Below are positions 382 through 40,652 of a stretch of 54,044 bases of DNA, piece by piece. Source of the stretch: an uncultured bacterium (lineage in GTDB: Bacteria; Patescibacteriota; Minisyncoccia; Phycocordibacterales; UBA9973); contig CAITSA010000027.1 in the NCBI GenBank assembly GCA_903894955.1, forward strand, positions 1 to 54,044. Direction: 5' to 3'. Position numbers and translations under genes: made by a program. The notes beneath the pieces were generated by a model. The model saw nothing but the letters and a program-made list of their open reading frames with translations. It searched no databases and was not told the origin of the DNA. How positions within the stretch are numbered: the first letter of the stretch is position 1; every line of letters starts with the position of its first letter.

Positions 382-942
382 TTATCTTATATGCTTCCTT
401 AACATCTTACTTACCTGATTAAGATTCGGAATTTGAAGTTTCACTAAATCCCAGAATTTCTTTGAATGGTTAAATTCTTTTAAATGGCATAATTCATGAA
501 CGATCAGATAATCTTGTAGTTCTTTCGGAAGAAAGATAATTTTATAGTTAAAATTAAGATTTCCTTTTTTAGAACAACTACCCCAGCGTGTCTTTTGATT
601 TTTAATAGATATTTTGTTGTAATGAAATTTATAAAATTGATTAAAATACTCAACTCTGTTTTTAACTAATTCAAGAGATATATCTTTATTTTTTATATAC
701 TCTCTTTTTGTACCCTTAAAAACAGCAATATTTTGTTTTAAATTAAAAAAATCAATTTTTTCCTTAATCCAACTAATTTTATTTTCAATAACAGATAAAA
801 TTCGTGAAAAAAGGACATTTTCCGGATACACTGCCACGACTGAACCATCACAATATACTGCTATGCGCATACGCTTAGCTTTTTTACTTTTTTTGATATC
901 AACAGTTATGTTTTGATTTTTTATTAAAAGTTTTCTTTTCAT
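382..942 (-). CDS. DUF45/YgjP-like HExxH zinc metallopeptidase, terminal gene of the type I R-M operon
   Basis: 186-aa ORF. WGSCSKKGNLNFNYKIIFLP...LIVHELCHLKEFNHSKKFW matches the DUF45/YgjP signature with HExxH. The start lies 2 nt after the hsdR stop. Confidence 0.75.
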   Translation of the reverse strand: MKRKLLIKNQNITVDIKKSKKAKRMRIAVYCDGSVVAVYPENVLFSRILSVIENKISWIKEKIDFFNLKQNIAVFKGTKREYIKNKDISLELVKNRVEYFNQFYKFHYNKISIKNQKTRWGSCSKKGNLNFNYKIIFLPKELQDYLIVHELCHLKEFNHSKKFWDLVKLQIPNLNQVSKMLRKHIR

Positions 943-944
943 AA

Positions 945-3863
945 TTAAAACTTCTTAAGAATTACATCAATTAATCTGTTTAAATACTTTTGAAAATCAC
1001 GAACCATTAGACTGTCTTTATATTCTTGTAAGAGCATTTGTTGAACCTGTCTCTTTATGTCTTTTAGAAAATCTTCTCTGCGAGCTGTGTCTTGCCAGCC
1101 TTCGTCAAGCAAATCGTTTAAATATAGAGCTAAATCAATTGAAAATTGCTTTAGCGAATCTTTTTCAATTTCTCTGACATATCCTTCTTCTTTGGAAAGA
1201 GAATAGAGCGCAAATTGTTCCATATTGAGACCTAAATCTTTTGCTTCAAGATCAACTTTCTTAATATCTCCTGCCAAGTTATATAGTTTTTTTAATGTCT
1301 CTTGTAGTGTCGTCTGTCGTTTTTCAAACTCTGTTTTAATAATCATTAATCTTTCAGAAAACTTTTTAAATATCGGACTAGTGTCTAGGTTTATTGAGAT
1401 TTCATAATTCAAAGCTCGTTCAAGCATTCTAGCTTTGTCTTCATCCTGATCTTTGTATTTTTCAAGTTCTGCGAACTGGTCAAGCCGAACCGGAGTATAA
1501 TTTTTTGTGATTCCTTCAAAATCTACCTTAGATTGAATAATTCCTTTTAGTTTTGAACCATATTCAGAAAGTAGAGCGTAAACATCTCTAGTGTCGACTT
1601 CAAATTCTTTTTTAAATGCTATATAAAAACAAGCAAACCATTCTATCTGTCTTGTAAACGGCAAGAGATATGGGTCTGGAGAAATTATTTCATAAAAGAG
1701 TTTCAATTTATTCCATCCTTCTTTAAAATCTTCTTGTTTTTCAGGATTATCTCTAAAAATTTCAAAACATTTTCGCAAGTTTTCCATTGACGGATTTTCT
1801 GTATTTATTCCTTTGAAAATACTATCTACTTTTTCAAAGCTGGTTTCAAATTCTTTTTTAATAGAATTCATATCTATCATTGATTCCGCTATCTCGTCTT
1901 CGTCAAAATCCAACGCATCTTTTAAATTTTTAGTGATTCCATAATAATCAATTATCAAACCATTTGATTTTTGCGGATATGTTCTATTTGTACGAGCTAT
2001 CGCCTGCAAAAGGTTGTGATGTTGCAGTGGCTTATCTATATACATCGCTTGTTCAACTGGAGCATCAAAACCAGTCAAAAGCATATCGCACACAAGCAAA
2101 AATTTAAGCGGTTGATTTTTATCTTTGAATTTCTTTATAACATCTTTTATTTCGTTCTTAGTTTTATTGTATTTACTAAGTTCTTCTGTGTCGGTATTTA
2201 CTTCACCCGGAGAATAAATAACCTCCGAATATTCTTTCGGCATTATTTGGTCAAAAATTTCTTTATATCTAGCTGTTGTCTCTCGATCATAGCAAACGAC
2301 TTGAGCCTTAAACCCCGCAGGGGCAACATAGGTATTGTAATGCTCATAGATATCTCTAGCCACAGCTTGCATTCTTTTTTCTAGTTTAGTAAAGGCTTGT
2401 TTTCTGCTGTATTTTTTAGAAAGTAAATCTTTTTGTTCTACTGACAAATCACTTGTCGACAAGTCAAACTGTGCGTCAACTTCTTTCTCGTCTATAGAAA
2501 ATTTTGATAGTCTTGCCTCGTACACCACCGGAACCGTCGCATTGTCTTCTATTGCTTGTTTTATTGAATAATAATCAAGATATCTCTCTGGGTTACCAGA
2601 AGTCAAAAGACCAAATTCTTCGTGTGTTTTAGATATAGGAGTACCGGTAAAGCCTATCATACTAGCGTTTGGTAAAGAATGTCTTAGATATATTCCTAGG
2701 CTTCCATATTGAGTACGGTGCGCTTCATCAATTAAAACAATAATGTTTGAAGCCTCATTTTTTATATCTTTAATATTTTCATCAAACTTGTGAACTGTTG
2801 AAATAAAAATCCCAGCTTCCGGAGAACTGACGACTTTGAGTAATTGTTCCCTTGATGTCACACGTTCAACATTTTCTCCTCCGCAGTTTATGAAAGTCTC
2901 AAAAATCTGATCGTCCAAATCAACTCTATCTACGAGTATAAAAATTTTAGGATTTTCTAAAAGTTTTTCATAGCGTAATTTCCACGCTGTGAAAAACATC
3001 GTCAAACTCTTTCCAGACCCTTGAGTGTGCCAAACAAGCCCTCTCTTATGCTTGCCTTCTTTTATTCGTTCAAAAATTTTATTAGTTGCTCGAAATTGCT
3101 GATATCGCGCGATTTTTTTTACCAAACCATCATCTGTGGCTTCAAAAACTATAAAATTTTGAATAATATCTAATAAATTACGTCCAGCCAAAAGCGCAAC
3201 AAGAGTGCTTTCCAGTTTTCCCTTATATTCTTCTTCAATTTCCTTATCTTTCCATTCTAGAAAACCTTGCTCCGGTGAATATGTTGTTCCATATACAGTT
3301 TTAATTCCATCTGTGGCTATATTAAAACAATTAGGAATAAAAAGACTTTTAGCATTTCGCTCATAACGCTTTATCTGCCCTATGGCAATAAAATAATCAA
3401 CTTGTTCGGAAGCTGTCGGGCTTTTTGCCTCAATATCAATTATCGGGATTCCGTTCAAGAAAATTAAAATATCTGGTCTAATATTTTCAGCATTTCCGGC
3501 AAAATAAAATTGATTAGTAACGACAAAATGATTGCTATCTACATTATCAAAATCCACAATCTTATAATTTTTTGTCTTACGAGTTTCAGAATCAATCAAG
3601 TCAACGCCATTTCTCATTAGCTCCAAAAATTCCTTATTGGTTTCAATTCCACGAATTATCTGAACAATATTCCTCATTTCACCGCTTTCAACTTTGCCAT
3701 TAATCCGGCGAATAGCATCCTGCAAAAGTGGTTCGGCAATATACTCATTCTCGTAATGTCGCAATTTATCAAAAATCTCCGGCTTAATGTATTCAAAACC
3801 AAGTTCTTTTTGAATAAATGTAATAATGTGATTTTCTATTGTATATTGTTCGTTGAATTTCAT
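945..3863 (-). CDS. hsdR: Type I restriction enzyme R subunit (nuclease-helicase)
   Basis: 972-aa ORF with an N-terminal D...ExK nuclease region (RPDILIFLNGIPIIDIEAK). SF2 motifs: HTQGSGKSLTM (Walker A), VLIDEAHRTQYG (DEAH), GFTGTP and LQAIARTNR. Confidence 0.93.
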   Translation of the reverse strand: MKFNEQYTIENHIITFIQKELGFEYIKPEIFDKLRHYENEYIAEPLLQDAIRRINGKVESGEMRNIVQIIRGIETNKEFLELMRNGVDLIDSETRKTKNYKIVDFDNVDSNHFVVTNQFYFAGNAENIRPDILIFLNGIPIIDIEAKSPTASEQVDYFIAIGQIKRYERNAKSLFIPNCFNIATDGIKTVYGTTYSPEQGFLEWKDKEIEEEYKGKLESTLVALLAGRNLLDIIQNFIVFEATDDGLVKKIARYQQFRATNKIFERIKEGKHKRGLVWHTQGSGKSLTMFFTAWKLRYEKLLENPKIFILVDRVDLDDQIFETFINCGGENVERVTSREQLLKVVSSPEAGIFISTVHKFDENIKDIKNEASNIIVLIDEAHRTQYGSLGIYLRHSLPNASMIGFTGTPISKTHEEFGLLTSGNPERYLDYYSIKQAIEDNATVPVVYEARLSKFSIDEKEVDAQFDLSTSDLSVEQKDLLSKKYSRKQAFTKLEKRMQAVARDIYEHYNTYVAPAGFKAQVVCYDRETTARYKEIFDQIMPKEYSEVIYSPGEVNTDTEELSKYNKTKNEIKDVIKKFKDKNQPLKFLLVCDMLLTGFDAPVEQAMYIDKPLQHHNLLQAIARTNRTYPQKSNGLIIDYYGITKNLKDALDFDEDEIAESMIDMNSIKKEFETSFEKVDSIFKGINTENPSMENLRKCFEIFRDNPEKQEDFKEGWNKLKLFYEIISPDPYLLPFTRQIEWFACFYIAFKKEFEVDTRDVYALLSEYGSKLKGIIQSKVDFEGITKNYTPVRLDQFAELEKYKDQDEDKARMLERALNYEISINLDTSPIFKKFSERLMIIKTEFEKRQTTLQETLKKLYNLAGDIKKVDLEAKDLGLNMEQFALYSLSKEEGYVREIEKDSLKQFSIDLALYLNDLLDEGWQDTARREDFLKDIKRQVQQMLLQEYKDSLMVRDFQKYLNRLIDVILKKF

Positions 3864-4594
3864 ATCTTTTTTGATAGTTCGCTAATAATTACTTTTGCAA
3901 AGTCAAGAAACACACGCTTAAAATTCTCATACTCTTCTTTTTCTAATTTTATTTCTTCCTTATCTTTATATTTAGTTTTATAGGTAGTATCTCTTACTTG
4001 GTTCAAAAAACCATGATCAACTTTACTATTATTGTGAACAATAATATTTCTCAAGGCTTCTCCAAGAATCATTAAATCTTTTCCGGAATCTTCTAATTCG
4101 ATATTTATACTCAAATATTCTTCAAAAAATCTTAGTGTACTTTTTAAATCTTGAAAATTTACTTCACCCTTTAGCGAAGTCAAAACTAATTCACCAACAG
4201 TTGGAGCAGAGTATCTTAATAAAGTTACATCCACGGGTAATTTTTTCTTTGATTCTGGCCAAGTTATAATACTTGGATATTTATCTATTATATTTTTTAC
4301 CAAACTATTTAAAAAAGACTCAAAATTTTCAACAATTAACACCAATGCTTGATTGTGAATAATTTCATATTTCTTTTTTAAAGATTTATGCTCTTTTATA
4401 TTACGGATTGTTTCAATTGTAGTATTTAATTTGTTTTTATACTCAAGAAAAGCAGGCATATTCTCATACTTCTTTTCTAAACCTTCCAGAAGTGAAACAA
4501 CTAAATTACCCACATCATCACCAATATTTATAATTTGATCTATCATTTTTAGATTCTCCTCAAAATTTTCTTTTACAGAATTTAAGTTTTCCAT
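3860..4594 (-). CDS. Uncharacterised helical protein with HEPN-like R-x4-H motif, inserted between hsdS and hsdR
   Basis: 244-aa ORF with an ATGA overlap with hsdR and a 1-nt overlap with hsdS. GEALRNIIVHNNSKVD (nt 4031-4057) gives R-N-I-I-V-H in the C-terminal third. The family call is tentative. Confidence 0.5.
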   Translation of the reverse strand: MENLNSVKENFEENLKMIDQIINIGDDVGNLVVSLLEGLEKKYENMPAFLEYKNKLNTTIETIRNIKEHKSLKKKYEIIHNQALVLIVENFESFLNSLVKNIIDKYPSIITWPESKKKLPVDVTLLRYSAPTVGELVLTSLKGEVNFQDLKSTLRFFEEYLSINIELEDSGKDLMILGEALRNIIVHNNSKVDHGFLNQVRDTTYKTKYKDKEEIKLEKEEYENFKRVFLDFAKVIISELSKKI

Positions 4595-5736
4595 TATTTT
4601 ACTCTGACTTTTCCGTTCAAGAGATCCGACATTAATCCCTTTTTTAATTGGATAAGTTTTTCTTTTAACTTTTTGTTAACTGTAATTTTTTCATCTACAC
4701 TCGAAAGAATTTCTGTAATTTTTTCTTGTTCAGGTTTTTTGGGAACAGCAAAAATAGCTTGTTCCAAATATTTAAAATGACGATTATATCCTGTGTTTGG
4801 TATATCTAGTTTTAATAATGAATAAAATAAAAATTTAGGATCATTTTCTTTTTTTGCCCAAATTATTTTAGTTCCATCATTTCCTAATACATAAGGAAAA
4901 TCTATATATTTTAGTATTCTTGTGTGGTCACCAAAAATTATTGTGGGGATTTTTTCTTGAAGCAAATCATTGCTATCTGTGTATCCTGTAATAAAACTTT
5001 GTGCTTGGTCAATTATTGGATATCTCCCTTGTTCTTTGTAATCAGACTTTTTTAACCCTTGTAATTTAGAAGCAACGTCAAAACAATCATTAAATGATTT
5101 TACTTGCCAATTTTCTGGAATTTCTCCAAGTTTTGTTTTTTTGAATTTAGTATGTCCAATACCTTTTGTTAAAAGCTCTTGCATTAAACCTGACTTTATT
5201 TTTCCAGTTTCCTCAATAATTTTCTCCGTCTTTTCAATATCTTCATCCACCTTACTTAAAATTTCAGCAATTTTTTCTTGCTCAAGTTTTAATTTCGGCA
5301 AACAAACAGGTAATTCCATCAATACTTCTTTATTTAATTTTTTCCTAGTTCCACCAGTTGTGTAAATATCTAAATTTACCCAATTTAAATATTGTTCAAG
5401 GTAAATATTAGAAGATAATCCTTTTGCTTTTAAGACATGCGCATGATTATTTACCCAACTTTTACCTTTTACAATAAAAGACTTATTAACGAATGGTAAC
5501 CAATCAGCACCGTCCTCCCCAATAACAAGAATTTCTTCGTCAAAAATAAAATCACCAACATAATCAATAATTCCGGTTGCACCATAATAAGGAATATCCC
5601 CAGAAACTCTGTCAGATTTAGTAATAGGGATTCTTCTATTGTCTAAGTTGTTGCATAAATTAGAAAGTGGTAATATTTGCCACCCATCCGGAATATTTTT
5701 TTCTTTTAAATTAATCATTTTATATACTAAAAACAT
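4594..5736 (-). CDS. hsdS: Type I R-M specificity subunit
   Basis: 380-aa ORF with two target-recognition halves. Each half is followed by a conserved helical spacer (LEQEKIAEILSKVDEDIEKTEKII...LMQELLTKG and PEQEKITEILSSVDEKITVNKKL...LMSDLLNGK). An alternative start, MINLKEK at 5718, lies 1 nt after the upstream stop. Confidence 0.9.
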   Translation of the reverse strand: MFLVYKMINLKEKNIPDGWQILPLSNLCNNLDNRRIPITKSDRVSGDIPYYGATGIIDYVGDFIFDEEILVIGEDGADWLPFVNKSFIVKGKSWVNNHAHVLKAKGLSSNIYLEQYLNWVNLDIYTTGGTRKKLNKEVLMELPVCLPKLKLEQEKIAEILSKVDEDIEKTEKIIEETGKIKSGLMQELLTKGIGHTKFKKTKLGEIPENWQVKSFNDCFDVASKLQGLKKSDYKEQGRYPIIDQAQSFITGYTDSNDLLQEKIPTIIFGDHTRILKYIDFPYVLGNDGTKIIWAKKENDPKFLFYSLLKLDIPNTGYNRHFKYLEQAIFAVPKKPEQEKITEILSSVDEKITVNKKLKEKLIQLKKGLMSDLLNGKVRVK

Positions 5737-6571
5737 TATTGCCTATATCTTTACTACATTCATCACAATAACTATTGTGACCATAATTAGATGCTGATAA
5801 CCAGTTTCTTGTAAATTGCTTTCCGCATTTTATACACTTTTGAGATCCCAAAGATGCCAAGCGTATCCCATTATTAAGTTCTGCGGAAGTAACTATATTA
5901 ATAGGCTCACTCAACACACTTGACCCCCAAACAACACCATGGGTTGATTGAGAACGATCTTTTTTTATTTCCTTAATTTGTTTTTCTAAATCACTAATTT
6001 TTTTCTTTAATTCCTGTTCAATTTTCTCATCATTTGCAGAAGCTAACTCTTTTCTCTTTTCAAGAAGTTCAATCATCACAGATTGTGCTGCATCTTTATA
6101 TTTCTTTTCAATTTCAGCTTCTTTTTCACTTTTTTCTTTTAATTCTGGGACAATATCTATCCAATCTGCTAAACCAGAAGCAATATTGAGTTCAATTGTT
6201 GAAATATGCCTATTAATTTCTTCTAATATATTTTTACCCTCTGTTTTTTTAGTTTTTTTTAAAAAATCATCAACCCAAATTTTTACATTACAAAGCTGTG
6301 TACTAATACCTTGTAGATTACGAAGGGCAGATCTTCCTTTCTTTTCTAAAATATTTTGCCCGACTATTTTTTCATAATCATCCTTTACAAAACTTCCAGC
6401 AAAACCAGCAAAGAAGCTCCCGAGAACAGTAAGCAATGTTGAAAAAAGAGTATTGTCTTTAAAAAAGTATGCAAAAATCAAACTTAATACAGTAAAAAGA
6501 CTAAAAATAGCAGCCCCAGGACTAGAGGTAACGTTCCAAAATATTTTCCACTTTTCTTTTTGAGTTTTCAT
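5720..6571 (-). CDS. Uncharacterised 2-TM / coiled-coil / C-terminal zinc-ribbon protein inserted between hsdM and hsdS
   Basis: 283-aa ORF with two hydrophobic helices (AAIFSLFTVLSLIFAYFF, LLTVLGSFFAGFAGSF) and a long Lys/Glu heptad-like stretch. The C-terminus has CIKCGKQF...17 aa...CDECS (CxxC...CxxC). I recognise no family. Confidence 0.6.
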   Translation of the reverse strand: MKTQKEKWKIFWNVTSSPGAAIFSLFTVLSLIFAYFFKDNTLFSTLLTVLGSFFAGFAGSFVKDDYEKIVGQNILEKKGRSALRNLQGISTQLCNVKIWVDDFLKKTKKTEGKNILEEINRHISTIELNIASGLADWIDIVPELKEKSEKEAEIEKKYKDAAQSVMIELLEKRKELASANDEKIEQELKKKISDLEKQIKEIKKDRSQSTHGVVWGSSVLSEPINIVTSAELNNGIRLASLGSQKCIKCGKQFTRNWLSASNYGHNSYCDECSKDIGNNVFSI

Positions 6572-6575
6572 TTTT

Positions 6576-8273
6576 CTAATATTTTAATTCTTTTAAATAC
6601 CCCTCGACTTTTTTGTTAATTTCTTCTTTTTCTTTCTCAATTTGCTTTAATTCTTTCCACACGACTGAAACATCAATTTTTTCCTCTATTTCCGATGAGT
6701 CAATGTATCGGCGAACATTTAAGTTATAATCATTTTCTTTTATCTCTTCTGCACTGATTACTCGTGCATATTTATTTATATCCTTCCAGTTATCAAAAGC
6801 AGAAGCAATTTTTTCTATATCTTGGTTACGAAGCGAGTTTTGATTTTTTCCTTCTTGATAATCACGCTCGGCATCTATAAACAGAATTTTATTCTTGTGA
6901 TTTGCCGGTTTTGTTTTATTTAAGATTAACAAGGCTACAGGAATACCTACTCCGAAGAAAAGCTTGGAAGGCATAGCGATAACTGCTTCTATTAAGTCAT
7001 TTTTTAAAACTTGTTCACGAATTCTGCCAGAAGTGTCGGATTTAAAAAGCACGCCGTGGGGCACAACAATACCGGCTTTGCCATTTTCGTTTAAAGATTT
7101 AATGATGTGGAGAATAAAAGCATAATCAGCATTTTTCTTTGGTGGGAGTTCATATCCATCTGTGCGAGCGTGTTTATCATGCACAAAAGTGTCCCATTCC
7201 CATTCTTTTATAGAATAAGGGAAGTTTGCAACAACGTGGGAAAAAGTCTGCATTTTTCCAGCTTTGTCTAGAAATTGAGGGTCTGCAAGAGTATCTCCTC
7301 GGCGGATGTCGGTACTTTCAAGTCCGTGCAAGAACATATTTATTTTTGCAATTCCGAAAGTTCCAATTTCTATTTCTTGGCCAGACAAGTACATCTTGCG
7401 AGCTTCTTTATCACTAAATTTTTCACGAACATAATGATAAGCTTCAAGTAGAAAACCTCCCGAGCCACAGGTCGGATCATGGACATGACTTTTTGCATCC
7501 GGTTTTATTATTTTCATTATTACTCTTTCAATTTCTCTCGGACTGTAGAACTGGCCTCCTTTTTTGCCGGAGTCGGAAGCAAATTGCTTTATAAGATATT
7601 CATAAGCATCACCGAGAATATCAGAATTTATATAAGTGTTTCCAAAATTATATTTTGAAAAATGATTTACAAGACGTTGAAGTGTTTCATTGGGAAAACG
7701 GTCTTTGTCAGCAAAATTTAAATTATTAAAAATTTTATCAAGCTTTGGACTATTGGCGGTAGTTATTTTATCAAAAACATCATTAAACTTTGCGCCTATG
7801 TTGATAGCTTCTTTCTGAATCTCAGACCAACGACAATCTTTAGGAACTTGAAATTTATGATTGTAATCTGCGTGAGCAAGTTCTTCGTCGTGAAATTTTT
7901 CTAAAATACTTTCATATTCTTCATCCCAGACATCACTTATTCTTTTATAAAATAGAAGTCCGAAAATATAAGTCTTGTAATCTCCACTATCAATTTTCCC
8001 TCGGAGAATGTCTGCGCTTTTCCAAAGAAAAGATTTAAGAACTTCAAGCGACATTTTTTCTTCTTTCTCCGGTGCATCTTTGTCTAAATTCATAACAGGA
8101 TGGGCTAATCCTTTATCAACTATTTTATTTATGATATCTTGTGTATATCTTCGGTCTTGCCTTTTACCCACGCGTAGAGGTTTGATAAGACCCTGGTCTT
8201 CCCAATTACGGAGAGTATCTTCATGAACGCCTAAAATTTTCGCTGCTTCTTTTATTGAATAATTATTGGTCAT
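6576..8273 (-). CDS. hsdM: Type I R-M N6-adenine DNA methyltransferase subunit with fused N-terminal MerR/excisionase-type HTH
   Basis: 565-aa ORF with the SAM motif DPTCGSGGFLLEA and the catalytic motif VVANFPYS (NPPY-like). The first ~55 aa (YSIKEAAKILGVHEDTLRNWEDQGLIKPLRVGKRQDRRY) look like a MerR/excisionase HTH. Confidence 0.93.
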   Translation of the reverse strand: MTNNYSIKEAAKILGVHEDTLRNWEDQGLIKPLRVGKRQDRRYTQDIINKIVDKGLAHPVMNLDKDAPEKEEKMSLEVLKSFLWKSADILRGKIDSGDYKTYIFGLLFYKRISDVWDEEYESILEKFHDEELAHADYNHKFQVPKDCRWSEIQKEAINIGAKFNDVFDKITTANSPKLDKIFNNLNFADKDRFPNETLQRLVNHFSKYNFGNTYINSDILGDAYEYLIKQFASDSGKKGGQFYSPREIERVIMKIIKPDAKSHVHDPTCGSGGFLLEAYHYVREKFSDKEARKMYLSGQEIEIGTFGIAKINMFLHGLESTDIRRGDTLADPQFLDKAGKMQTFSHVVANFPYSIKEWEWDTFVHDKHARTDGYELPPKKNADYAFILHIIKSLNENGKAGIVVPHGVLFKSDTSGRIREQVLKNDLIEAVIAMPSKLFFGVGIPVALLILNKTKPANHKNKILFIDAERDYQEGKNQNSLRNQDIEKIASAFDNWKDINKYARVISAEEIKENDYNLNVRRYIDSSEIEEKIDVSVVWKELKQIEKEKEEINKKVEGYLKELKY

Positions 8274-16641: not shown

Positions 16642-16714
16642 AAGTTTTGCATTTAATCGTTTGGTTTGGTAATATGTAAAAGTTATATATTTTGGTCGTT
16701 AGACTTAGGTATAT

Positions 16715-16787
16715 GGGCCGTTAGCTCATCTGGTAGAGCACCTCATTTGCAATGAGGGGGTGGCAGGTTCGAGTCCTGTACGGTCCA
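16715..16787 (+). tRNA. tRNA-Ala (anticodon UGC)
   Basis: Manual cloverleaf: acceptor GGGCCGT/ACGGTCC with the G3:U70 Ala identity pair, D arm GCTC-ATCTGGTA-GAGC, anticodon arm CCTCA-TTTGCAA-TGAGG, and T arm GCAGG-TTCGAGT-CCTGT. CCA is not encoded. Confidence 0.92.
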
Positions 16788-18279
16788 CCCTAGAGTACGA
16801 AGACGCAGAAATTGCGTCTTTTACTTTGAAAACATTGGCTACTTCTTGTGTTCCAAATATTCTATTTTCAAATGTCAGACCTTGTGGAAATTGGAACCAC
16901 TGCAATTTAATTTTTATTCCTATCTTTTTTATTTCAGACCATGTTTTACTTGGTTGTTTTAAGTATTCTTCCATAAATTCAATCATCTTTTCATAGTCAG
17001 CATCACTGTTGGGAATATTAGAAAGGGTGGAACTTGTTTCCATTAGTTGAGTTTCAATAAGTTCTAGTTGTTGCTTCAACACGTTATCACTAATTACTCC
17101 ATCAAGATTTTTCTTAATTATTGCAGATTGTTTTTCATTTAATTCATTCACACGTTTTTCTAGTTGTTCTCTCTCTTTTCGTTTTTCTGCTGTTGCTTTT
17201 ATTAAGTTGTCTCGTACAAGTATTTTAAGTTTTTGATATTTTGTTTCATCTAGTTTATATCTATCCATATATTTTTTGAAGTCGTCTTCAAAAACATCTC
17301 TCCTTAAACTTGATTTATCATTACCAAAACGATAAAACGGATATCGATTTCCTTTACCATTAGTAGACCAACTTCCTGTTAACACCTTACCTTCACTACT
17401 CTTTACAAATTTGCGAAGAGGAAAATCTGGATTATCTGTAAGATAAGCTGAATGCTTTCTTCCTCTTCTTTTTAATATTCTTTGTACTTGATTAAAAAGC
17501 TCTTCTGATACAATTGGCTTAAAATTTCCCTTATGTTTTTCTCCAAACTTAATAATCCACCCTGCAAAAAGTTCATTGGTAAGCATTGAATAAAAATATG
17601 ATTTTGAAAAAGGGTTACCTTTTTTATTTAACAAACCTTCCTTTGTCATCATCCTTCTAATTTCTTCTGTTGGATAGGTATCCAAAGATATAAGCTCAAA
17701 TGTTTTTTGTATTAGAGGAGCCATTATTTCATCTTGCACAATAGTAGCCCTTCCAGCTATTGTGGTATTTTTATAACCAACTGTAGCCATCCACACATAG
17801 CGACCATCACGCATAGCATCCTTCATTCCCCCTGCACAGCGTTCAGAACGTATATCATTATCAAACTGTGCAATGTTTGCCATTGTATTTTCCATAAAAC
17901 GACCAGCAGGGTTGTCTCCGAAAAACTCCGAAGTGGATTTTATTTCTACTCCATATTTTTTTAATAAAATACGAAGATAGCTATAATCATCCACCCTGCG
18001 AGATAGACGGTCTAACTTATAAATTATAACTGCCCTTATTCCATTCTTTTTGTTTGCACAATAATTGAGTAATTTTTGAAGTTCTGTTCTGTCTGCTGTT
18101 TTTGCACTTTCTCCCTGTTCAATGAATATTTCAGCTATTTCATAATCATTTTTTAAACAATATTCTTTACAAATTTTTTCTTGAGTACTTAAACTGTTTC
18201 CCTCATCAACTTGTTCTTTAGTGGAAACTCTAACATAGATAACTGCTTTCTTTCTAGAAACATAATTTATTTCGTTCAT
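16726..18279 (-). CDS. Large serine recombinase (integrase type)
   Basis: Resolvase catalytic domain KAVIYVRVSTKEQ...(Ser nucleophile)...IIYKLDRLSRR, followed by a recombinase domain and a long coiled-coil C-terminus. The likely start is MNEINYV at 18279. The last ~20 codons are the antisense of tRNA-Ala. Confidence 0.85.
   Translation of the reverse strand: MNEINYVSRKKAVIYVRVSTKEQVDEGNSLSTQEKICKEYCLKNDYEIAEIFIEQGESAKTADRTELQKLLNYCANKKNGIRAVIIYKLDRLSRRVDDYSYLRILLKKYGVEIKSTSEFFGDNPAGRFMENTMANIAQFDNDIRSERCAGGMKDAMRDGRYVWMATVGYKNTTIAGRATIVQDEIMAPLIQKTFELISLDTYPTEEIRRMMTKEGLLNKKGNPFSKSYFYSMLTNELFAGWIIKFGEKHKGNFKPIVSEELFNQVQRILKRRGRKHSAYLTDNPDFPLRKFVKSSEGKVLTGSWSTNGKGNRYPFYRFGNDKSSLRRDVFEDDFKKYMDRYKLDETKYQKLKILVRDNLIKATAEKRKEREQLEKRVNELNEKQSAIIKKNLDGVISDNVLKQQLELIETQLMETSSTLSNIPNSDADYEKMIEFMEEYLKQPSKTWSEIKKIGIKIKLQWFQFPQGLTFENRIFGTQEVANVFKVKDAISASSYSRVDRTGLEPATPSLQMRCSTR
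16801..16822 (+). terminator. Intrinsic terminator after tRNA-Ala
   Basis: AGACGCA-GAAAT-TGCGTCT followed by TTT. Confidence 0.55.
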
Positions 18280-18472
18280 ATTCTTTTTTATCCAAAAATG
18301 CCTCAACTAAAATACTTGCCAAATAATCTAGTGATGCGTTTTCAGATAAGTTATTAATAATACCAAAAGAGGGACAACGAAGTGAGTTTTTACTGCTACG
18401 CAAAAGCTCTCGTTGCCCCTCTTTGGGTATAAAATTATTCTCACCTATTAAACTTTTGCGTAGCATTTCCAT
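18254..18472 (-). CDS. Hypothetical small protein upstream of the recombinase
   Basis: 72-aa ORF on the same strand, overlapping the recombinase start. No family recognised. Confidence 0.3.
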   Translation of the reverse strand: MEMLRKSLIGENNFIPKEGQRELLRSSKNSLRCPSFGIINNLSENASLDYLASILVEAFLDKKEYERNKLCF

Positions 18473-18476
18473 TATA

Positions 18477-18833
18477 TCAAATTTTCAAAGAAATTTCACC
18501 AATAACTAAACCTTTAATACTCTTATCGCATTCTTGATTTTGACACCCTTTAAATTGATTTTTCCCCTTTTTTTCGTTCTCCTCAAGGGTGTTTGTAGTG
18601 AGTTCTAAAAAATCAATAAGCCCTTTTTTATCAGCTTTATCATATTCCTCTTCAGGCATTAATTCCTTAAATGCCTTCAGTAAATTTTGACGTGAAAATC
18701 CTTGACCTCGAACCGCCCTAACGAGATTAATAGAGGCTCCATGAAATGGATTTTTATGTTCTTGTTCTTCAAACCTTGCTTTTATACTTCTCATACAGAC
18801 TATTATATGTGAATACGGACATCCCATGAACAA
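18477..18833 (-). CDS. Hypothetical protein
   Basis: 118-aa ORF (alternative start MRSIKARF at 18794) on the same strand as the recombinase. No family recognised. Confidence 0.4.
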   Translation of the reverse strand: MFMGCPYSHIIVCMRSIKARFEEQEHKNPFHGASINLVRAVRGQGFSRQNLLKAFKELMPEEEYDKADKKGLIDFLELTTNTLEENEKKGKNQFKGCQNQECDKSIKGLVIGEISLKI

Positions 18834-18885
18834 AAAGTGGATAACTTTTTGCTTTAAATTATGTTAGTATGTGCTTACAACTAAA

Positions 18886-19042
18886 TATGTATCAAGAGTG
18901 GCGGTAGAGAATTGGCTCGATAACCCCACAGCAACCTGCAAATGTAAGGTGCTAAATCCAACCAGACACGAAAGTGTCAGGAAAGATAAGTTTGCGTCTA
19001 GTCCACGTAAAAAATCTTTCCTCTTTATTAGAGGAATTTTTT
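18886..19042 (+). promoter_or_regulatory. SAM-I (S-box) riboswitch with terminator expression platform
   Basis: TATCAAGAG-TGGCGG-TAGAGA-ATTGGCTCGATAA-CCCCAC-AGCAACC...AAGGTGCTAAATCC...AAAGATAAG follows the SAM-I consensus blocks. Hairpin TTCCTCT-TTATT-AGAGGAA (19018-19036) plus TTTTTT precedes the ATG at 19053. Confidence 0.8.
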
Positions 19043-19052
19043 ATTTATAAGT

Positions 19053-19469
19053 ATGAACAATAAAGAACTTGTTAAAACACTTAATACAGAAACTCTTTTA
19101 ATCTCAAGAAAACATTTCGGTATGTTTGATGTTCAATATGAAATTGATGGTGTCTACGATGGATACATAACGATATTGGTATTTAGACCCAAAAACCATC
19201 ACACAACGATAGAACAACTCTCTAAGGATATACGAGAAGGTATAAAATATTCTTTACCAGTCAATCTTCTTAATAGTGTTATGATTTTTCATTTTATCGA
19301 TTTAGAAAAATGGAGTGTTTCAGAAAATAAAAACATAGAAAATCGAGAAAAAGAAGACTACCTTATCTGTACAATTGTTATTTCTGATAATGGACGGCTA
19401 ATTAAACAATACTCTAATAGTCGTTCGGTTTCAGAAATGAGTGAACTTGACTATTTTAGAAACAATTAA
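19053..19469 (+). CDS. Uncharacterised 138-aa soluble protein downstream of the SAM riboswitch
   Basis: ORF only. No motif recognised. Confidence 0.6.
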   Translation: MNNKELVKTLNTETLLISRKHFGMFDVQYEIDGVYDGYITILVFRPKNHHTTIEQLSKDIREGIKYSLPVNLLNSVMIFHFIDLEKWSVSENKNIENREKEDYLICTIVISDNGRLIKQYSNSRSVSEMSELDYFRNN

Positions 19470-19530
19470 TCTAGGTTAACAATAGGTCGAATTCTTGATA
19501 TGATGTACTTATAAAACTTAATATTAAAAG

Positions 19531-19694
19531 TAGCCTAAACCTTAAGTTTTCTTAGGGCATGGTGAGAATCCCGTGAAGCATAAAGAACTCTTAGTCAGAG
19601 TTCGCCTTCACGGGTCATACTTGGAAACGAGTATGGGTGGTCTAAAAAACCATCAATCTGGCTAAGAGCTTTTTGCGTTTTAGCCTATAAAATC
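19531..19694 (+). promoter_or_regulatory. Candidate structured 5' leader (unclassified)
   Basis: 9-bp helix CCCGTGAAG/CTTCACGGG enclosing AACTCT-TAGTC-AGAGTT. 8-bp helix CATACTTG-GAAA-CGAGTATG with a GNRA tetraloop. Further helices GGTGGT/ACCATC and GGCTAA/TTAGCC. It ends 10 nt before the ATG at 19695. Confidence 0.4.
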
Positions 19695-20986: not shown

Positions 20987-21210
20987 GTTAAGTTATGTTA
21001 AGTTAGTAAAACTTAATAATTCTATTACTAAAAGCAAGGTTTTACTAGGTTCCCATAATTTTCAATAATGATAGGTTTTGATAGGTTGTAGGTTTTCGTA
21101 GGTTTTCGTAAGTTTTTCTTATTTGCGTACTTATCGCAAAACTCGACACAATCTTAGGTTTTCTTAGGTACATAACAATCCCTTAAATGTTAAGTTTTGT
21201 TAGGTTCTAA
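20987..21210. repeat. Iteron-like array of short direct repeats (TAGGTT / TTAAGTT family)
   Basis: atgttaagtt x2 in tandem (20987-21006). Then ctaggttc, gataggtttt, gataggttg, taggttttcg x2, taagtttttc, cttaggttttcttaggt, atgttaagttttgttaggttc. By eye there are at least 11 copies in about 225 bp of non-coding DNA. Confidence 0.7.
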
Positions 21211-40554: not shown

Positions 40555-40652
40555 ACAAAGAATTGTTGACCGAACTGTTACCGGACGGTGGCGTGGCTGG
40601 GACAACCAGCATAGGAAACAATCCGAGAAAAAACCCTTCGGGGTTTTTTCTT
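40555..40652 (+). ncRNA. Candidate ~100-nt small RNA (promoter-to-terminator unit without an ORF)
   Basis: Bounded by the promoter above and the terminator below. It has a GC-rich core with hairpin GCTGG-GACAA-CCAGC and is antisense to the tgt upstream region. Confidence 0.3.

Follow-up and report, generated by a model that had tools for sequence, protein, structure and literature searches.

Genetic organization of the switch locus

The DNA analysed here, called the window below, is a stretch of 54,044 nt (positions 1 to 54,044 of contig CAITSA010000027.1; the accession number of the assembly in GenBank: GCA_903894955.1) from an uncultured bacterium of the Patescibacteriota (Minisyncoccia; Phycocordibacterales; UBA9973), whose genome is represented by 627 kb in 31 contigs and is 77% complete. 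Our subject is a unit of about 190 nt on the forward strand, made up of a promoter, an aptamer of the SAM-I (S-box) class for S-adenosylmethionine (SAM) and a terminator, which stands before an open reading frame (ORF) for a protein of 138 amino acids, ORF138, in the vicinity of a large serine recombinase gene. We consider it probable that this unit is a working SAM-I riboswitch of the OFF type, and that it is a portable copy of a metK leader placed before an orphan accessory gene of a mobile element. The parts of the switch and the gene behind it are as follows.

18862..18870, + strand: extended -10 promoter element TGtTAGTAT, followed by the motif TTACAACTAAATA; predicted from the sequence, the stretch being kept in the related locus L001
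18886..18992, + strand: SAM-I (S-box) aptamer, RF00162, with a P1-P4 four-way junction and a pseudoknot
18980..19021, + strand: putative antiterminator, GGAAAGAT with ATCTTTCC, enclosing a hairpin
19018..19042, + strand: intrinsic terminator with a 7-bp stem, a 5-nt loop and T6; from the terminator scan, the sequence and the fold
19053..19469, + strand: ORF138, 138 aa, from the ORF list; soluble and mildly acidic, with an isoelectric point of 5.8

SAM-I aptamer and expression platform

When the whole window was scanned against Rfam 15 with cmscan, the RF00162 match scored 61.4 bits (gathering score 44.4; E = 7e-12) and covered model positions 1-108 of 108 without truncation. The aptamer blocks quoted in a preliminary description of this DNA (TATCAAGAG, GGCTCGATAA, AGCAACC, AAGGTGCTAAATCC and AAAGATAAG) are all found in the sequence, and its assignment of the leader to SAM-I is thereby borne out. 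By these measures the window RNA appears to be a genuine full-length SAM-I riboswitch. Its pseudoknot joins the P2 loop UUGG (18912-18915) with CCAA in J3/4 (18958-18961). For comparison, 17 SAM-I copies that do not precede metK were aligned, namely those of the genus survey described below together with the loci L001 and L006, and minus a weak match in genome G034 (33 bits). A covariance model built from six gap-free SAM-I copies with the Rfam structure was used to align the 17 copies, in place of a MAFFT alignment on which RNAalifold had given a wrong fold of the aptamer. In this alignment, which is itself fitted to the model, standard pairs make up 85.2% of the cells, double-sided changes are present at 18 of the 34 aptamer pairs, and none of 500 shuffles reaches any of five pairing measures; in a control in which the 3' partners were slid, pairing falls to 30–58%. 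Moreover, the pseudoknot pairs are retained in 13–15 of the 17 copies and include compensatory variants, for example CUGA with UCAG in G096. The compensatory substitutions and the covarying pseudoknot argue that the aptamer fold of the non-metK copies is still under selection.

Near the 3' end of the aptamer, sharing bases with the 3' strand of P1, stands GGAAAGAT (18980-18987). Its exact complement, ATCTTTCC (19014-19021), runs into the 5' arm of the terminator. Of the antiterminator helix that the two would form, eight pairs in full, the minimum-free-energy fold contains the inner segment, AAGAU (18983-18987) paired with AUCUU (19013-19017). The same fold draws the hairpin nested inside the antiterminator (18991-19011, loop CTAGTCC), whose stem varies compensatorily between species; in a variant contig from a lake metagenome four of its stem pairs are changed, again in a compensatory way. 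The terminator has the sequence TTCCTCT-TTATT-AGAGGAA at 19018-19036, followed by T6 at 19037-19042, and the spacer from the T-run to the ATG at 19053 (ATTTATAAGT) is exactly 10 nt, so that the terminator scan and the sequence agree with the earlier reading of a 7-bp hairpin and a T-run 10 nt before the start codon. Three terminator-like sites were observed in the region, compared with 0.2 expected from shuffles. The antiterminator and the terminator appear to be mutually exclusive, which is the classical S-box arrangement. In addition, AGAGGAA in the 3' arm of the terminator is the sole Shine-Dalgarno-like sequence upstream of ORF138, and because of this the switch may control ORF138 at both transcription and translation. 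The motif TTACAACTAAATA found behind the promoter element also follows the -10 element upstream of the aptamer of the genome's own metK and upstream of several copies of LOOT RNA, a structured RNA that also lies downstream of ORF138.

ORF138, the putatively regulated gene

ORF138 is taken as a real coding gene because its dN/dS is 0.14 against the 77%-identical homologue in L001; the value against the homologue in L006 is 0.53. A word-indexed search of about 5.8 billion clustered proteins, a full phmmer search of 1.84 billion representatives and a profile search gave two homologues only, P0002 (77% identity; on a JGI contig and a Logan contig) and P0003 (50%; in an NCBI metagenome assembly), and a six-frame profile search detected none in the 200 other genomes of the genus. 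All three members of the family stand behind a SAM-I riboswitch, that of the window, that of L001/L002 (53.3 bits) and that of L006 (58.9 bits), where an extra ORF of 93 aa separates the riboswitch from the ORF138 homologue. The leader is better kept than the gene in the comparison with L006 (90% against 70% nucleotide identity in the coding sequence). These comparisons indicate that the pairing of switch and gene is conserved, with purifying selection on both.

Searches of the Pfam, PHROGs and PADLOC libraries and a profile search of the PDB sequences gave no match to ORF138. The prediction of its structure that had been proposed earlier was carried out and yielded an AlphaFold2 model of fair confidence (predicted local distance difference test, pLDDT, 74.5; predicted template modelling score, pTM, 0.71), in which the order of elements is a helix, two strands, a helix, a strand, helices and two strands; it led to no significant fold neighbour, the searches of PDB and BFVD having best E-values of 0.014 and 0.012 and query-normalised template modelling (TM) scores of at most 0.46. 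Weak fold matches to nucleotidyltransferases were dropped, as a matching catalytic motif is lacking in ORF138. With neither a family nor a fold match, ORF138 stands outside the known methionine, cysteine and SAM regulon, as the preliminary description had supposed, and it matches no known methionine-salvage protein. The further suggestion made there, that it might have a SAM-related function (binding, degradation, salvage or transport), found no support: no family, motif or fold match points to it, and the protein is soluble and absent from the 200 genus genomes.

Origin of the leader and other SAM-I copies in the genus

The source genome has exactly two SAM-I riboswitches, and the other one (contig C1:67805-67901) precedes a short-form metK. 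A survey of 201 genomes of the genus, including that of the window and leaving L001 and L006 outside the sample, gave 59 SAM-I copies in 52 genomes. Forty-one of these lie directly before metK and two lie before metK behind an inserted ORF, and the remaining 16 of the 59, the window's among them, precede other genes; the survey of genes behind SAM-I in related genomes that had been called for thus gives 43/59 for metK and 16/59 for other targets. The ORF inserted between SAM-I and metK, in L101 and L102 (genomes G111 and G187), encodes a cysteine-rich protein of 211 aa (MKKKCSKCKREKSLDKFF...) and looks like an intruding gene.

The non-metK and the metK leaders of the genus share one expression platform, with a nested hairpin loop YUAGUC and the strand ATCTTTCC. 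Over aptamer and platform the window leader finds its nearest matches in other non-metK leaders (identity 0.86–0.92) and in a metK leader of G027 (0.89), and its identity to the own metK leader is below 0.80. Because of the shared platform and these similarities, the promoter-aptamer-terminator unit of about 190 nt appears to be a portable copy of the metK leader of the genus. There are two metK genes 8 kb apart in G027 (L031, contig C3), each with a SAM-I leader (76164-76294 and 84008-84114). The second of these leaders is the metK leader most similar to that of the window and may be the source of the portable cassette. Furthermore, the leader precedes at least four unrelated families of small ORFs. 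Taken over the genus, the portable leader appears to have been recruited repeatedly before unrelated small accessory genes on serine-recombinase elements and in defence islands.

The layout of the window, namely a tRNA or transfer-messenger RNA (tmRNA), a serine recombinase, small ORFs, SAM-I, a small ORF and LOOT, is also found in G210, G096, G220 and G063. The small ORF behind SAM-I in these four genomes belongs to the family YYF (72–97 aa, motif NPYLYYFSTALKLH), which also follows SAM-I in G033, G029 and G110; it is unrelated to ORF138 (hhalign probability 0.15%), and searches for a Pfam or fold match to it gave none. G220 and G063 each carry another SAM-I, divergent and likewise equipped with its own terminator, at the head of an operon of a small ORF and the serine recombinase (L065 3251-3353 on the minus strand in G220 and L066 3168-3273 on the minus strand in G063); the scores of these two copies are 44.6 and 41.3 bits with the Rfam model and 56 and 38 bits with the covariance model of this analysis, respectively. 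The recombinase of G220 is 76–78% identical to that of the window and is split in two frames. As for the element of G210 (L063 117-517), it abuts the tmRNA, and its recombinase gene overlaps the tmRNA 3' end.

Other non-metK copies have different neighbours, whose labels are sequence motifs read in the ORF listings except for the SbcB-like and PD-T4-1-like genes, which were labelled by the PADLOC library search. In G062 and G166, SAM-I is followed by a zinc-ribbon ORF and then by zeta-type P-loop-like and GIY-YIG nuclease-like genes, and in G075 it stands before an ORF of 140 aa. In G018 it is followed by a 55-aa ORF, an SbcB-like exonuclease gene (PADLOC, 2e-109) and an SNF2 helicase-like gene, with a C5-methyltransferase-like gene on the opposite strand. 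The copy in G033 lies just 3' of two DNA methyltransferase-like genes and a PD-T4-1-like gene; a C5-methyltransferase-like gene is found downstream of LOOT in G210, and a small ORF resembling an excisionase-type helix-turn-helix (HTH) protein in the recombinase operon of G096. In G041, a genome from a different family within this order, an operon comprising a 180-aa ORF, a SAM-dependent methyltransferase-like gene and a FolD-like gene stands behind a SAM-I riboswitch; the latter two genes were labelled by their N-terminal sequences only.

The serine-recombinase element and LOOT RNA

The features of the window around the switch unit are listed below.

16714..16790, + strand: tRNA-Ala (TGC), from ARAGORN; Rfam tRNA, 63.6 bits; blastn homology to L001 begins at 16714
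16726..18306, - strand: large serine recombinase (Pfam Resolvase PF00239, 1.8e-32; Recombinase PF07508, 1.5e-12), with its start likely at an ATG near 18279
18254..18472, - strand: ORF72, a small protein gene overlapping the recombinase start; without family match
18477..18794, - strand: ORF118, with which the leftward recombinase operon begins; homology to L001 stops at 18794
19476..19504, + strand: putative LOOT promoter with TTAACA, 17 nt and a TGtTATGAT-type extended -10 element, from the promoter scan; kept in L001
19532..19654, + strand: LOOT RNA (RF03000), full-length, 86.3 bits against a threshold of 46.4

Homology to L001 by blastn spans exactly 16714-18794 and 18876-19678, with none elsewhere in the vicinity, and the genes on the two flanks are different. 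The shared module runs in the order tRNA-Ala, recombinase, ORF72, ORF118, divergent promoters, SAM-I, ORF138 and LOOT RNA; it is about 3 kb long and contains four ORFs only, with ORF138 divergent from the recombinase operon. The tRNA-Ala gene is presumed to be the left edge of this module and the integration target, and the 3' end of the recombinase gene runs antisense across it. Two further statements of the preliminary description are supported, namely that the switch lies in a putative integrated element and that a recombinase gene is its neighbour, the latter being about 750 nt from ORF138 with two small ORFs in the gap. The connection it drew to the type I restriction-modification (R-M) system of the window has no positional support, as that system (about 382-8273) lies at a distance of more than 10 kb, beyond the limits of the conserved module.

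The recombinase is 78% identical to the L001 copy, and a scan of 185,579 species genomes gave relatives with 39–82% identity in 32 loci. ORF72 lies directly upstream of the recombinase in 19 of these 32 loci (tblastn), its L001 copy being 94% identical, and it may be an obligatory partner protein of the recombinase. ORF118 has an 88%-identical homologue of 105 aa in L001 and weaker ones in G210, L104, L109 and L123; its own true length is probably 105 aa as well, with the start MRSIKARF. Fifteen of the related loci were scanned with Rfam, and in all 15 the recombinase gene shares its 3' end with a tRNA. In L104, whose recombinase is 82% identical, LOOT directly heads a leftward cargo of membrane-protein genes, and neither L104 nor L105 (recombinases 80–82% identical) has the SAM-I riboswitch or ORF138. 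Hence SAM-I and ORF138 together appear to be an optional cassette between the recombinase operon and a LOOT-led cargo slot. Relatives of the recombinase are found in records labelled Paceibacterota or Patescibacteria, and some in records labelled Bacteroidota (L113, L116, L118, L124, L128, L129, L131 and L132, 44–65% identity, including the isolate Niastella vici DJ57). Unless some bins of metagenome-assembled genomes are mixed, the recombinase lineage appears not to be confined to Patescibacteria. A group I intron (RF00028, 68 bits) lies at L125 5994-6290 on the plus strand, just past the tRNA abutted by the G220 element.

Since LOOT heads cargo genes in related elements, the element of the window probably extends past 19678 into ORF152, and it may include the gene for an S49 peptidase (SppA-like). 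Neither an empty site nor a right-hand attachment site was found, ORF152 being unique in the genus and the contigs of four lake metagenomes showing no joints; repeat searches gave no second copy of the tRNA or of an attachment sequence. Short repeats in the gene desert that follows the S49 peptidase gene (TTAGGTTTTCTTAGG and similar, 20987-21210) resemble the first hairpin of LOOT (cf. 19526-19556), and 30 nt among them (21061-21090) are 93% identical to the sequence just upstream of the LOOT copy in G018. These repeats may represent the right end of the element or an array of binding sites.

LOOT RNA is present in 99 of the 201 genomes. Most of the 21 inspected LOOT loci have a -10-like element at one and the same distance before the RNA, and in most loci a hairpin with a T-run stands behind it; in the window such a terminator-like hairpin with a T-run follows just 3' of LOOT, reaching to about 19684. 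A serine recombinase gene was found within 1.5 kb of 7 of 29 other LOOT copies, and LOOT in 6 of the 15 recombinase loci scanned with Rfam. Direct control of LOOT by the SAM-I riboswitch was set aside in view of the own promoter-like element in most LOOT loci inspected.

Proposed mechanism and alternative explanations

From the sequence and the known S-box mechanism, transcription would start a few bases upstream of the aptamer at the extended -10 promoter. With SAM bound, P1 would form and sequester AAAGATA, leaving ATCTTTCC free to complete the terminator at 19018-19036; transcripts would then stop at the T-run, AGAGGAA would be hidden in the stem, and ORF138 would be off. When SAM is scarce, GGAAAGAT would pair with ATCTTTCC, the terminator would be blocked, and ORF138 would be transcribed and translated. 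Because no terminator was found between ORF138 and LOOT, transcripts of ORF138 would probably continue through LOOT at low SAM. The switch unit lies between the leftward operon (ORF118, ORF72 and recombinase) and LOOT, within an element presumably integrated at tRNA-Ala. ORF138 would be made only when the SAM pool of the host is low, and this logic argues against a SAM-consuming or SAM-degrading role; a SAM-degrading protein fits poorly because the OFF switch would yield it only at low SAM, and SAM lyase was rejected as a candidate on this ground and for want of a fold match. With low confidence, we would assign ORF138 to a starvation or stress programme of the element itself rather than to SAM metabolism.

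Several observations weigh against a working switch that serves an accessory gene of a mobile element. In the window two of the eight P1 pairs are non-standard, and the kink-turn (K-turn) strand in P2 (3' strand) reads GAUAAC, with UAA, as it does in the own metK leader and in three other copies, where most copies have GAUGAC, with UGA. The distance from AGAGGAA to the ATG is 16 nt, greater than in related leaders. A SAM-I riboswitch lies within 4 kb of only one of the 32 related recombinase loci, that of G220; for this reason the idea that SAM-I belongs to the core of the element family was dropped, and a role of the riboswitch in the life cycle of the element cannot be general. The right boundary of the element may lie beyond the conserved core, and the ORF138 family has three members and hence almost no comparative power, with no match assigning it a role. 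Finally, only DNA metagenomes from lake water contain the window sequence, and a search for RNA sequencing runs containing it found none. The weak P1 and the non-consensus K-turn would fit a leader that is a decaying or merely convenient promoter cassette, has lost SAM sensing and leaves ORF138 constitutive; moreover, the leader is a repeated sequence, which could spread by recombination alone. Yet the score exceeds the threshold by a wide margin, the core and the pseudoknot are intact, as are both antiterminator and terminator, the compensatory substitutions among the non-metK copies imply continued selection on the fold, and the UAA variant of the K-turn recurs in the functional-looking own metK leader. 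We therefore regard such decay as highly improbable.

If the switch works, as we think probable, the question is what it serves. OFF switches of the SAM-I class normally induce SAM-raising functions when SAM is low, and in a classical homeostatic arrangement ORF138 would be an unrecognised member of the SAM/methionine regulon, such as a salvage enzyme, an uptake accessory or a one-carbon enzyme; the operon of G041, by its N-terminal sequence labels, shows that one-carbon targets other than metK exist. This is hard to reconcile with a protein that has no family, motif or fold match, counts three members in 5.8 billion proteins, is absent from 200 genomes of the genus and lies within a module that moves between genomes, the more so as the leader precedes unrelated small ORF families, and we hold such a homeostatic role to be improbable. 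It is about equally improbable that ORF138 is a recombination accessory or regulator, for example a directionality factor, which would tie excision or transfer to low SAM. The divergent position of ORF138 beside the recombinase operon in a module of four ORFs would fit, SAM-I leads the recombinase operon itself in G220 and G063, and serine integrases have small, varied directionality factors without homology to one another. However, the close relatives L104 and L105 do without switch and ORF138, the slot behind the switch holds unrelated proteins (ORF138 or YYF), and ORF72 and the HTH-like ORF of G096 are better candidates for that part.

The leader could also act as an alarm for low SAM, sensing when the SAM pool collapses, whether through starvation or through a SAM-degrading enzyme of a phage, with ORF138 and the other small ORFs as effectors or protectors of defence or mobile islands. 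Several non-metK copies are indeed found in defence contexts (G033, G018 and G210), but the conserved module of the window has no R-M or defence gene, ORF138 has no PADLOC match, and the co-location may be due to chance, as R-M genes are common in all islands of Patescibacteria; in addition, we know of no SAM lyase from a phage of this lineage. We judge the alarm function unlikely. Most of the weight stays with an accessory protein made when SAM is limiting, whose role need not be any of these three. A wider version deserves mention, though we would give it only a small chance: the unit of about 190 nt might be a portable metabolite-sensing cassette by which the mobile elements and defence islands of ultra-small bacteria read the SAM of their host, so that a fall of SAM, through starvation or a SAM-degrading phage enzyme, would turn on effectors such as ORF138 and, in sister elements, the recombinase operon as well, coupling defence or excision to the supply of the methyl donor.

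Comparison with known systems

The window leader resembles the S-box leaders of metK, yitJ and metI in Bacillus subtilis in the four-helix aptamer with its pseudoknot, in the OFF logic of antiterminator and terminator and in the Shine-Dalgarno sequence within the 3' arm of the terminator, and a paralogous switch in the same genome controls metK. It differs in that its target is an orphan without link to sulfur or SAM metabolism, and in that it is carried by an integrating element and turns up again before unrelated accessory genes, leading a serine recombinase operon in two relatives. As an RNA it is a plain member of the SAM-I family, and the departure from the known pattern is its use. The common view of riboswitches is that of housekeeping regulators, each acting on the pathway by which its own ligand is made or imported. 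What appears to be new here is a metK leader turned into a movable cassette before orphan genes on serine-recombinase elements and in defence islands of Patescibacteria. Full-text literature searches returned nothing relevant on a SAM riboswitch with an integrase or mobile element, on riboswitches in Patescibacteria or on riboswitch-controlled excision of prophages, and gave no account of a riboswitch carried by a large serine recombinase element. If the switch works as predicted, an RNA would let the mobile DNA of Patescibacteria monitor a central metabolite directly, and low SAM would be a defined condition for inducing the ORF138 family and a practical handle on its function. The unit would also be a compact, native and ligand-responsive switch and thus a candidate genetic tool; inducible systems are currently lacking for these organisms, a need noted in PMC11665869.

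The recombinase module shares with the serine integrase elements of phiC31, Bxb1, A118, TP901-1 and SPbeta (SprA) the resolvase and recombinase domains, the integration at a specific gene, here presumably the tRNA gene, and the small accessory ORFs beside the recombinase. In contrast to them, it is tiny, the 3' end of its recombinase gene overlaps the tRNA on the opposite strand, and elements of its type have LOOT RNA as a component, joined in sporadic cases by a metabolite riboswitch. At 19532-19654 the RNA is a full-length LOOT member and forms a separate gene outside the riboswitch, with its own predicted promoter and a terminator-like hairpin; it would be the 3' part of an ORF138 transcript only upon read-through. 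LOOT RNA comes from the survey of Weinberg et al. 2017 (PMC5737381) and does not figure in the main-text discussion of that paper. That survey is also the source of a further orphan structured RNA in the window, DUF3800-IX RNA (RF02968, 44.2 bits against a threshold of 36.8), at 40560-40628 on the plus strand.

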